From Ostreococcus lucimarinus (lineage: Eukaryota): a stretch of DNA of 64,000 nucleotides. A model generated the notes under the pieces. That model was not told the origin of the DNA, made no database searches, and was given only the letters and a program-made list of their open reading frames with translations. This document shows positions 55,130 through 58,777 of the stretch, in pieces. Position 1 is the first letter of the stretch. The number at the start of each line of letters is the position of its first letter. The stretch is from NCBI GenBank assembly GCA_000092065.1, contig CP000586.1; one strand, given 5' to 3'. A program made the translations under genes and the position numbers.

Positions 55130-56305
55130 CTAATCGCTATCGCTGTCGTGTCTCCTTCTACCTTCGTCTCGCCGCCGTTTCGGCGATCGAGATCGAGAGC
55201 TCGTCCCGGACGAACTTCTCGAGCGGCTCGAAGAGTCGTCGCGACGGCGTCTGCGCGTTCGGCTGTCGCTTCTCGAATCGCGCCGGCGTCTCGGCGGCGA
55301 ACGACTTCTCGAATCGCTGCTCGAGTAAGACGACGATCTACTATAACTCCGCGAGCGACTGCTGTCGCGCTCGCGCGAGCGGCCGCGCGGCGGCGGAGGC
55401 ACATCCACCTGTCGCGGCGGCGGCGGAGGCACTTCGGCGACGCGGCGCTGCGGCGGCGGCGGAGGCACTTCAGCCACGCGCTGCGATGGCGGCGGAGGCA
55501 CGTCCACGCGTCGGCGCTCGTCAACCACCGCGGATGGACGCGCGTTCGGATCCAAACCTCGACGCTTAATCTCCGCGTCGACGACGTCCAATTCCTCTCG
55601 GAAGCGCGCCGCGTTTCTCTTCGCGTCCTCCGCCTCTCGCTCGCCGCGTCTCTTCGACTTCTCCCTGCGCTCTCTCTCCTTGCGCTCCCTCTTCTCCCGT
55701 TTCTTCGCCCGTTTCTTCGCCTTCTTCTCCCGCTTCTCCGCCCTCCGTCGCTCCCTCGCTCGTCGCCGTTCTTCCTCCTCCCTCGCCGCGCGCTTCTCCT
55801 CTCGCAACGTCTGTTGCAGCTCCCGATCGAACGCGTCCCCCTCCCTCGCGTCTCGCTCCCTCTTATCCACCCCGAACGCCCGCGCCAGGCGTTCCATCTC
55901 TTCCTCTTTCCTCTGCATCACCCCGTGCGTGCTCTCGTCCCTCGCCTCGCTCTTCGCCTTCGTCGCCGTCTCTCGCCTTCGCCGCAGCGCGTCTCGCCCG
56001 TCTCGCCGCGTCTTCTCGATCGCCGCCTCGATCGCCCCCTCGCTCGCCCCCTCGCTCGCCATGCGTTCCTCCAGCTCCGCGCACGCCACCTCGATCGCTC
56101 GCAGCGCGTTGTGCTCGAGGATCGCCGCGCTCGGCCGTCGCGTCGTCGTCGCGCCGGCGCCGCCGTCGCGATCCCTCGCGCGCCATCCCTCGTTCGTTTT
56201 CGCGTCTCGCGTCAGTCTCGACGCGTCGCGATGGAACTTGTTCGTCTGGACGTACCCGGACGTGCCGGAGCCGCGCGCGCTGGCGAGGCCGACGCCGTTG
56301 CGCAT
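55130..56305 (-). CDS. cwf21/SRm300 (SRRM2-like) splicing-related SR protein
   Basis: Long antisense ORF 55130..57499; real ATG 56305. MRNGVGLASARGSGTSGYVQTNKFH matches the SRRM2 N-terminus [22 protein letters not shown]. cwf21 helix ILEHNALRAIEVACAELEERMASEGASEGAIEAAIEKTRRDG; K/E/R coiled region; C-terminal RS/SR repeats (SRSRSYSRSSSYSSSDSRSRSPPRRRRDSRSDSRTRRRRR). Confidence 0.75.
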   Translation of the reverse strand: MRNGVGLASARGSGTSGYVQTNKFHRDASRLTRDAKTNEGWRARDRDGGAGATTTRRPSAAILEHNALRAIEVACAELEERMASEGASEGAIEAAIEKTRRDGRDALRRRRETATKAKSEARDESTHGVMQRKEEEMERLARAFGVDKRERDAREGDAFDRELQQTLREEKRAAREEEERRRARERRRAEKREKKAKKRAKKREKRERKERERREKSKRRGEREAEDAKRNAARFREELDVVDAEIKRRGLDPNARPSAVVDERRRVDVPPPPSQRVAEVPPPPPQRRVAEVPPPPPRQVDVPPPPRGRSRERDSSRSRSYSRSSSYSSSDSRSRSPPRRRRDSRSDSRTRRRRRDDSSSRSRSSSGTSSRSRSPKRRRDEGRRRHDSDSD

Positions 56306-56488
56306 CGCGCGCCGTCGCCGTGTGCCGCGCGACGCGATCGCCGACCGCGGCGACGTCCCGCGGTCGGTCGACCTATGGGCAAACAGTGAGGATGTGATCA
56401 CGCGAGACGTATCACACACGGACTTCAGACGCCCGACCGACCGTCGCGCGACGGCGCGCGCGACGTCGCGACGCGCGGCGCGCGCGCG

Positions 56489-57529
56489 ATGCGCGGCGCG
56501 CCGACGGCGACGGGACGCGCGGCGCGCGGGCTCCACCGCGCGCGACGGCGATCGACGTCGGCGCGATGGACGACGACGGCGCGGTCGGCGCGAAGACGCG
56601 TCGGCGGGCGAGGACGGAGGCGCGCGACGACGCGCGCGGACGCGACGCGCTTGACGGAGCTCGCGACGGACGCGACGCTCGGGATGGCGTGCTACGCGGT
56701 GTCGGACGAGATCGCGCAGAGGCTCGGGACGAGGACGCACGCGAGGGAGAGCGCGGAGGCGGACGCGTGCGAGCTGCCGACGGCGACGACGAGGGGGCGG
56801 TTCGTCAGGGATGGGAGGCGCGTGGGAAGGTACGTTGCGTTCGGAGCGATGGATGGGGCGACATCGTACGCGTGGTACGAGTGGGTCGATCGCGTGGTGC
56901 CGGACGACGCGACGAGGTCGGACGCGATGACGACGGCGATGAAGGTGGCGATGGACGCGGCGATTTATAATCCGATATGGGGGGCGTTTTTCATCGTTTC
57001 CATGGGCGTGCTGAGCGCGAAAGACGCGGAGACGATCGCGGGGGATGTGAAGAGGGATTGGAAGGCGCTGATCACGAGTAATTTGACGTTTTGGGTGCCG
57101 ATGAACTTTATCATCTACGGCTTCACGCCGTTGAATTTTAGAGTGCAAGTGCTGTACGCGCTCAACATCATCTACGTGTGTTCGCTGTCGATGTATTCGG
57201 AGCGCAAAACGCTGTTGAAGGACTCGGGGGATACGATGAGCATTCCCGACGTCGTCGCGCGAGTGCTTCCGGACGACGCGCGCGGAGATTGGCGAGCTTT
57301 GACGGGGTGCCCATCGTGCGGAGGCGAAAGGTTCGTGCCGTGTCCGGCGTGCGAGAGCGGACGGGAAACCACCACCGTGGTCGACGTCAACGGACGCACG
57401 CGCACGTTGTCCGTGGATTCGTGCGCGGGTTGTCAGGGCGCGCGACGAATCGCGTGTCCGGAATGTACTAACGTCGGCGCCGGCCGAGCGCCGCTTCAAA
57501 GCGAAGACGAATTCACGCCTACATATTGA
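56489..57529 (+). CDS. Mpv17/PMP22-family membrane protein fused to C-terminal DnaJ-type CxxCxG zinc-finger repeats
   Basis: ATG 56489. Mpv17/PMP22 core SYAWYEWVDRVVP...AMDAAIYNPIWGAFFIVSMGVL...LTFWVPMNFIIYGFTPLNFRVQVLYALNIIYVCSLS. C-terminus CPSCGGERFVPCPACESG...CAGCQGARRIACPECTN (four CxxC pairs). Confidence 0.7.
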   Translation: MRGAPTATGRAARGLHRARRRSTSARWTTTARSARRRVGGRGRRRATTRADATRLTELATDATLGMACYAVSDEIAQRLGTRTHARESAEADACELPTATTRGRFVRDGRRVGRYVAFGAMDGATSYAWYEWVDRVVPDDATRSDAMTTAMKVAMDAAIYNPIWGAFFIVSMGVLSAKDAETIAGDVKRDWKALITSNLTFWVPMNFIIYGFTPLNFRVQVLYALNIIYVCSLSMYSERKTLLKDSGDTMSIPDVVARVLPDDARGDWRALTGCPSCGGERFVPCPACESGRETTTVVDVNGRTRTLSVDSCAGCQGARRIACPECTNVGAGRAPLQSEDEFTPTY

Positions 57530-57653: not shown

Positions 57654-58777
57654 TTAGCTCTCTTGGTCAAAAATACCAGCGTGAGTATCCGTCGAGCACA
57701 TGAAGAGCGGATTTTCCACCGTCATCACGCGCTTTTCGTTATCGATGAGCGTGCGCAGCGGCTTGGGCAGCGCAAACATGCGCCTGTGCGACACGGTGTC
57801 GTAAAACTTCATCTCTAATCCACGCTTTTTCAAAGTCTCGTCCGCGTCGACGCCGCTCAAGTCGATGCTCGTGTCGTTTACGGCGAGATTGAAACCCCAC
57901 TCTGACGTGAACGACGGCACGCACATGGTGTAACCGTAAACTTTCGGGAACACTTGCGTCAGAGTGTGATGAATCGGTGAGAAGACGTGATGCGCATCGC
58001 GCACGGACGCGCATCCGCTCTGCGTGACGAAGATTCCTCCCGGCGCGAGCTTCTTGCTCAGCAATCGATAGAAATCCGTCGTGTACAGTTGATAGCACGG
58101 CCCCCCATCGAGCGGGTCGCTCAAATCCATGATGATCACGTCAAAGCTCCCATCGGGCTCGTTCGCCAATCCTTCCTTCGCGTCGCCGATGATCAAACGC
58201 GTTCGTTTATCCCCGTACGCCCCCGCGCTGTAAAACGGCGTGTGCTCTCGGCACATGTTCACCACGTCGCCGTCGATGTCCACCATCACGCACTCCTCCA
58301 CGCTCTCGTGCCTCAACACCTCGCGCAGCGTCGCTCCCTCGCCACCGCCACCGATGAACACCCGCTTCGGGTTCGCGTGCGCCACCAGCGCCGGATGCGC
58401 CAGCGACTCGTGATACACGTACTCGTCGTGCTCGCTCGACTGCATCAACCCATCCGTGATGAGAAGCGACCCGAACGGCACCGTCCGCACGACCTCGACC
58501 TCTTGAAACTTCGACGTCCCCTGATACAGCACCTCCTCGACCTATCGCGCGCGCCGTCGTCGTCGTCGTCGTCGTCAGTCCTCCCTCGCGCGCGTCCCGC
58601 GTCGTCGCGTCGCCGCTCGCGTCCCATCGTCCCATCGTCCCGCCCCCTCGCGTCGCGTCGCGTCGCGTCTTCGCGCACCCGATAGCTCAGCGCGAGCCCA
58701 TCCTCGAGGAGTTCGTGGTACCAGTGCCCCTCGGCGAACGTCTCGGCGCCGTACGCGCTCGGCTCGGCGTCCGCCAT
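57654..58777 (-). CDS. ACL5: Thermospermine synthase ACL5-like / SpeE-family aminopropyltransferase; join(57654..58541,58679..58777) on minus strand
   Basis: Main ORF begins at GTG with an in-frame stop 4 codons upstream. Exon 1 ATG 58777 MADAEPSAYGAETFAEGHWYHELLEDGLALSYR|GTGCGC..(137-bp intron, ACTGAC branch, atAG)..|VEEVLYQGTSKFQEVEVV restores the ACL5 N-terminal HWYEE...LHQGTSEYQ block. Body: GGGEGATLREV, MDLSDPLDGGPCYQLYT, GGIFVTQSG. Confidence 0.85.
58542..58678 (-). other. intron of ACL5-like gene (137 bp)
   Basis: Minus strand GTGCGCgaagacgcg...ggACTGACgacgacgacgacgacgacggcgcgcgcgatAG. Confidence 0.75.

Follow-up and report, generated by a model that had tools for sequence, protein, structure and literature searches.

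The gene at 56489..57529 on the plus strand of the Ostreococcus lucimarinus window (the whole 64,000-nt stretch of DNA that was analysed) encodes a single protein in which an Mpv17/PMP22-type membrane core continues, through a conserved linker, into a Cys-rich C-terminal tail. As judged from sequence comparison, this is a new domain architecture made from known parts and restricted to the Ostreococcus lineage, within which it arose and where it is under purifying selection. The tail is classified, from its profile matches and Cys spacing, as a J-less "DnaJE" zinc finger of the BSD2/GRXCR1 type and is a predicted zinc binder. With modest confidence, we read the whole, the fusion itself included, as an organellar Mpv17 core that carries a tethered zinc-finger tail for binding a client or partner. 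The gene and its parts, in window coordinates, are:

56489..57529 (+): complete CDS of the Mpv17-zinc-finger fusion protein, 346 aa plus stop
56489..56638 (+): N-terminal extension, residues 1–50, putative organellar targeting peptide, by composition
56639..57208 (+): Mpv17/PMP22-type helical membrane core, residues 51–240, from Pfam, AF2 and hydropathy
56735..56812 (+): loop 1 with the motif T83-H84-A85 ... C94-x-L96-P97 (THAxE...CxLP), from the ortholog alignment
57005..57190 (+): Pfam PF04117 Mpv17_PMP22 signature, residues 173–234, 43 bits against a cutoff of 27
57209..57304 (+): conserved linker, residues 241–272 (..LLKDSGDTMSIPDVVARVLPDDARGDWRALT), 32 aa, from the ortholog alignment and dN/dS
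57305..57469 (+): Cys-rich BSD2/GRXCR1-type domain, residues 273–327, predicted to hold two zinc ions, from profiles and spacing
57308–57319, 57341–57352, 57422–57433 and 57455–57466 (+): the CxxC motifs, from the sequence
57470..57526 (+): short acidic C-terminal tail, residues 328–346 (..PLQSEDEFTPTY), conserved in the closer orthologs

A preliminary description of this gene had proposed that both domains lie on one stop-free ORF, and this is borne out, with 346 uninterrupted codons running from an ATG start at 56489. The first in-frame stop on the 5' side is at 56387, and no second in-frame ATG occurs ahead of Met66. The gene has an exact sequence match in O. lucimarinus CCE9901 (XP_001418152.1 / ABO96445.1 / UniProt A4RYD7), annotated as a "predicted protein" of 281 aa that starts at Met66 (nt 56684) and covers 56684..57529 only. 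Residues 51–65 (..LTELATDATLG) are kept in the orthologs, with Asp61 and Gly65 invariant, and two of these orthologs (P0007 and P0008) have no Met around the position of the annotated Met66. Because the conserved residues 51–65 precede Met66, and because there is no other upstream in-frame ATG, Met1 (56489) is almost certainly where translation begins, and the RefSeq model probably omits the first 65 residues, with the Arg-rich presequence among them. Residues 1–50 comprise 17 Arg/Lys, 10 Ala and 11 Ser/Thr with no Asp or Glu, and are fast-evolving and nearly neutral, with a dN/dS of about 1. From this composition, we infer a targeting peptide for an organelle, either plastid or mitochondrion.

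As for the membrane core, the earlier assignment of the N-terminal 240 residues to the Mpv17/PMP22 family stands with respect to the family itself (residues 173–234, E=4.8e-11, 43 bits against the gathering score of 27, spanning the full model length 1–62), but the Pfam signature covers only 62 residues, and the region is actually composed of an Arg-rich extension of about 50 aa and a helical core of about 190 aa. The AF2 model of the trimmed protein has five long core helices (approximately residues 52–83, 109–136, 145–175, 180–212, and 215–243; pLDDT 70–88), and Kyte-Doolittle hydropathy yields three strong hydrophobic segments (151–177, 193–212, and 212–237) together with two weak ones. The number of membrane helices in the core, four or five, is ambiguous in these predictions. 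For the Mpv17/PMP22 family, four TM helices are predicted and a role as non-selective channels in organelles is described (PMC6767901). A Foldseek comparison of the full AF2 model with the PDB returned no match at E<1, which suggests that a solved Mpv17 structure is absent from the PDB, and the NCBIfam search gave no matches to the protein. In common with human MPV17, yeast Sym1 and PXMP2/PMP22, the protein has the C-terminal signature above cutoff, a multi-helix core, and a probable organellar location; it differs from the family by the addition of the Arg-rich N-terminal extension, a loop-1 motif of its own, and the C-terminal zinc-finger domain. In humans, MPV17 is a disease gene for mitochondrial DNA depletion, and the physiological role of Mpv17/PMP22 proteins remains debated.

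The tail contains four CxxC motifs (C274–C277, C285–C288, C312–C315, and C323–C326), arranged twice with the spacing C-x2-C-x7-C-x2-C, while the other 293 residues of the protein hold just three Cys. At least four CxxC motifs within 60 aa were reached in 2 of 200,000 composition-preserving shuffles with all 11 Cys kept, and the cluster is therefore real and no chance pattern. The four motifs had been described as CxxCxG repeats of the DnaJ type; all four CxxC pairs are indeed present, but only two of them fit CxxCxG (CPSCGG and CAGCQG), and none fits CxxCxGxG. The accompanying label "DnaJ/BSD2-type" is to be narrowed to BSD2/GRXCR1-type. A profile built from the ortholog tails matches the solved BSD2 structures (6ekb, E=4.9e-6; 9ci1, E=1e-5) with all four CxxC motifs aligned, whereas the same profile gives non-significant values for E. 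coli DnaJ 1exk and for 6jzb (E=2.7–3.9), and the Pfam DnaJ_CXXCXGXG model (PF00684) scores 10.8 bits against a cutoff of 32.7.

Scores against the curated Pfam models depend on the sequence that is used. In the full-length protein, GRXCR1-2_C reaches 21.7 bits (cutoff 26) and BSD2_CRD 14.4 bits (cutoff 27), and with the isolated tail from the window, GRXCR1-2_C reaches 26.5 bits against 26, a borderline value obtained over two short stretches, and BSD2_CRD 17.0 against 27. The tail of the ortholog P0007 is above both curated cutoffs (BSD2_CRD, 29.6 against 27; GRXCR1-2_C, 29.5 against 26). Among eight tails, GRXCR1-2_C matches seven, BSD2_CRD six, and DnaJ_CXXCXGXG three, the last with a best E of 0.011. 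Pfam finds no DnaJ J domain in the full-length protein at E<=1, and no glutaredoxin or thioredoxin-fold domain in it either. The AF2 prediction for the tail alone (eight sequences) has a mean pLDDT of 43, and the tail stays below 55 within the full-length model, such that the fold is assigned here from sequence only.

The closest solved relative of the tail is BSD2 (PF25436; 6ekb and 9ci1), with which it shares four CxxC motifs, identical half-site spacing, a hairpin of similar length (23 versus 21 residues), and the absence of a J domain. BSD2, however, is a small soluble stromal protein, while the domain here is carried C-terminally by a polytopic membrane protein; in addition, the window sequence taken alone is under the Pfam cutoff, and there is no sign of a Rubisco-related role. 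The C-terminal domain of GRXCR1/2 (PF23733) is alike in that the first half-site of the tail, CPSCGGERFVPCPAC, aligns to the start of the model, besides the borderline score of the isolated tail given above. It differs in that the fusion is without a glutaredoxin-like domain and in that neither half-site aligns to more than a small portion of the 47 model positions. A resemblance to the DnaJ Cys-rich domain has also been noted for the C-terminal domain of GRXCR proteins (PMC6114524). With canonical type I DnaJ/Hsp40 (PF00684; 1exk), the tail shares the general logic of a two-zinc hairpin with four CxxC motifs, but the spacing differs, and the fusion has neither a J domain nor CxxCxGxG motifs nor the C-terminal substrate-binding domains.

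Many DnaJE zinc-finger proteins work in chloroplasts as chaperones or assembly factors, and some of them have a membrane anchor; the anchored members ZnJ6, LQY1, and PSA2 resemble the fusion in combining a transit peptide and such an anchor with a zinc finger that has four CxxC motifs and no J domain, and their finger works as an assembly factor, chaperone or oxidoreductase (PMC7865324). Their anchor consists of one or two simple TM helices, whereas in the fusion it is a channel-family core, and the likeness is one of design. OR is another membrane-anchored chloroplast protein with a DnaJE zinc finger.

A search of 5.8 billion proteins retrieved full-length homologs at 93–96% identity (P0002–P0004) and at 50–62% identity (P0007–P0011). 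They come from independent genome and metagenome assemblies and are all single ORFs with the same architecture, so that the single-ORF fusion is kept in five diverged lineages (50–96% identity). A convergent spermidine synthase gene adjoins the fusion gene in all of the fusion lineages, which are therefore syntenic orthologs. In a wider search with an Mpv17 profile HMM over 1.84 billion representative proteins, 2321 matches were obtained at E<=1e-3. Among the best 150 of these 2321, 145 end at the core (profile position 190–213), and the entries that extend into a tail are the full-length Ostreococcus-type fusion clusters P0003 and P0011, the tail fragment P0091, and a divergent pair, P0111/P0141. 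The nearest relatives without a zinc finger are P0089, located on a contig of 41.5% GC with no shared synteny, and P0090 from Pyramimonas parkeae. The preliminary description had pointed to other Mamiellales as the place to look for the same fusion, and Ostreococcus-type lineages do keep it, but O. tauri has lost the zinc finger and distant green-algal relatives are without it. A word-indexed search with the tail profile returned the fragment P0091 alone and missed known full-length fusions, probably reflecting a limit of candidate selection, and it is therefore silent on stand-alone tails.

The situation in O. tauri is informative with respect to the role of the tail. The ortholog is located as follows:

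L011 3806–4765 (GCA_002158475.1, KZ155774.1): O. tauri ortholog, 209 aa annotated, ORF allows 274 aa

The identical 209-aa protein is present in two assemblies (CAL53328.1/XP_003079683.1, annotated as "Mpv17/PMP22", and OUS48621.1), occupies the same syntenic position, and ends with ...DVVARVREEAGK*, inside the linker. In the DNA alignment, homology extends through DVVARV and a degenerate remnant of five codons to the stop, with no similarity beyond. On the 3' side of the stop lie 135 bp of AT-rich sequence, followed by the 3' end of the spermidine synthase gene. A neighbour-joining tree built from the core makes O. tauri the sister of P0010, which carries the zinc finger, and so puts O. tauri inside the zinc-finger clade; the loss of its tail is therefore secondary. 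Given this loss, the tail would be dispensable in at least one lineage.

The tail is not the only element that differs in O. tauri. The motif in loop 1 of the core is invariant in all seven zinc-finger-bearing sequences and is absent in the sequences without a zinc finger (O. tauri, P0089, P0090, and P0092). It thus seems to have arisen along with the tail, and it disappeared together with the tail in O. tauri, which amounts to approximately two evolutionary events. A co-occurrence based on about two events suggests a single functional unit made up of loop 1 and the tail; such a unit requires that both are on the same membrane face, an arrangement that a topology with five helices would permit.

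Based on these comparisons, we propose that the N-terminal extension directs import of the protein into a plastid or a mitochondrion, and that the Mpv17 core performs the channel-like membrane function of the family by itself. This function would need no tail, because O. tauri retains the core alone. The tail would fold as a two-zinc hairpin at the membrane surface and serve as an accessory protein-binding module, a holdase or an adaptor, in analogy to the J-less DnaJE proteins BSD2, LQY1, PSA2, and ZnJ6 (PMC7865324). It would probably dock on, or cooperate with, loop 1, which would place both on one side of the membrane. The coupling of a channel-like protein to a holdase-like finger, as suggested in the preliminary description, is plausible.

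Of the other ways to understand the tail, a redox- or zinc-sensing switch is conceivable although we think it rather improbable; it would control the gating or activity of the Mpv17 channel core instead of holding clients. The switch could follow an Hsp33-like logic, or depend on thiol-oxidoreductase activity as reported for LQY1, CYO1, and ZnJ6. Redox activity is documented for ZnJ6 and related DnaJE proteins (PMC7865324). The eight invariant Cys of the tail would suit such a function, and so would His84 and Cys94, both invariant in the loop 1 that accompanies the tail. Moreover, the gating of the human MPV17 channel is reportedly responsive to redox state. The closest solved relative of the tail, BSD2, nevertheless reportedly works through client binding, on assembly intermediates of the Rubisco large subunit, and not through redox chemistry.

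The linker and the tail are strongly conserved among the orthologs. Invariant positions in the linker and at the junction are Asp245, Ser246, Gly247, 254–258 (from Asp254 to Arg258), 260–262 (from Leu260 to Asp262), Arg265, Trp268, Arg269, Thr272, and Gly273, and the eight Cys of the tail are invariant in orthologs down to 51% identity. In Nei-Gojobori comparisons with the closest relative, L005, dN/dS is 0.065 for the linker and 0.091 for the zinc finger, and 0.070 for the tail as a whole (17 synonymous and 4 non-synonymous differences). With more distant orthologs, dN/dS for the tail is 0.14–0.24. The counts behind the regional values for L005 are small; dS is 0.11 in the core (56639–57208), 0.44 in the linker, and 0.18 in the zinc finger, and dN/dS is higher in the core, at 0.48, than in the tail, at 0.07.

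This pattern of conservation also bears on the remaining alternatives. The tail could act mainly in oligomerisation or as a structural element, by keeping an Mpv17 homo-oligomer stable or by tying the protein to a fixed partner complex, with no chaperone or sensing role, which we regard as unlikely. Conservation is higher in the linker than in the finger's hairpin loop, as expected of a fixed interface, and homo-oligomers are predicted for Mpv17/PMP22 proteins (PMC6767901). On the other hand, assembly of the core would be independent of the tail, as O. tauri has the core without it. To our knowledge, the BSD2/DnaJE class has no members that function as oligomerisation modules. Even less probable is a lineage-specific appendage of little functional consequence that is in the process of being lost. 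The tail is gone in O. tauri and absent from the nearest outgroups, P0089 and the Pyramimonas protein P0090, but its dN/dS of 0.07–0.24 reflects selection that, against the closest relative, is stronger than that on the core, and its eight Cys are invariant even in lineages where synonymous sites are saturated.

An artefactual origin of the fusion, from two neighbouring genes, an overlooked intron or stop codon, or a frameshift in the sequencing, is scarcely credible, because the same ORF recurs in at least five diverged lineages from independent assemblies without any indel in the linker and at low dN/dS, while of the other frames across the junction one holds stop codons and one is open here but not conserved as protein, and the zinc finger of P0009 and P0011 has no Met of its own. 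By these comparative data, the fusion is accordingly genuine, as first described, being one conserved ORF under strong purifying selection over the junction in several independent assemblies. An intron near 57230, considered along with that description, is rejected, since this stretch is the most strongly constrained coding segment.

A second Mpv17 protein with a Cys-rich tail is represented by P0111 and its contig L004, a 1138-bp Tara Oceans sequence of 75% GC in which a distant Mpv17 core is followed by LGCGACGGRGMVPCARGCGG...CRSCRGTGNEVCRQC. The tail has the pattern C-x2-C-x7-C-x3-C ... C-x2-C-x7-C-x2-C, and the first helix is separated from the remainder by an in-frame stop, which suggests a short intron. 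The two kinds of tail are alike in the x7 spacing and in the context "W.R..GC..CGG...VPC", and their comparison scores 5.7 bits, a value reached by 8 of 1000 shuffles. The P0111 tail has no Pfam match, its core falls in a different Mpv17 subclade of the neighbour-joining tree, and a word-indexed homolog search returned only P0111 and its frameshifted twin. With weak tail homology (5.7 bits) and a core from another subclade, P0111 is rejected as an instance of the same fusion; a parallel fusion is possible, which is no proof of an ancient one.

A further-reaching interpretation takes the fusion as a "Rosetta stone", implying that Mpv17-family proteins physically work with J-less zinc-finger factors of the BSD2/DnaJE type. 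We consider this doubtful. If true, an assembly or redox chaperone could take over from an organellar Mpv17 pore or control its gating; loop 1, with His84 and Cys94, and the tail would constitute one metal- or redox-dependent unit; and P0111/L004, from an unrelated marine eukaryote with 75% GC, would be a parallel fusion reflecting the same partnership. The molecular role of Mpv17 proteins would then have gained a new handle.

The combination of domains had been called unfamiliar among described Mpv17 proteins, and literature searches that paired Mpv17 either with DnaJ-like zinc fingers or with both the chloroplast envelope and zinc fingers agree with this in that they turned up no paper in the library searched. 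One candidate, PMC4602308, was rejected as an Ostreococcus Mpv17 paper, "Mpv17" there being a virus name plus a reference number. Both domains are already present in the precomputed Pfam annotations of P0007, and the gene is public as an uncharacterised protein. The class of DnaJE zinc-finger proteins, which serve as assembly and redox factors in organelles, keeps growing, and Ostreococcus is genetically transformable. O. tauri, with both the tail and the co-occurring loop motif lost, provides a natural control, and combined with a conserved and selected fusion this makes for a compact, testable hypothesis of functional coupling. The scope is narrow, being confined to one picoalgal lineage; the fusion does not overturn current understanding, and its immediate value is a correct annotation and a lead rather than a discovery.

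As for the surroundings of the gene, an antisense ORF of 789 aa (55130–57499, –) traverses the entire Mpv17 gene. Its C-terminal 391 aa (55130..56305, –) are rich in Arg, Ser, Glu, and Lys, contain a proline repeat, and have no Pfam match. Only this C-terminal part looks like a real gene, and the remainder looks like stop-free antisense of GC-rich coding DNA. A cwf21-type domain considered for the upstream gene was dropped, as Pfam gave no match. The gap of 183 bp between the two genes (56306–56488) would be a shared divergent promoter region. On the other side, the Mpv17 gene faces the convergent spermidine synthase gene (57654..58532, –; PF01564, E=3e-42), and the tail-to-tail pair is kept at every ortholog locus examined. 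The spacer between the two has 44% GC, and because it measures only 124 bp, the 3' UTRs would have to be very short or to overlap.
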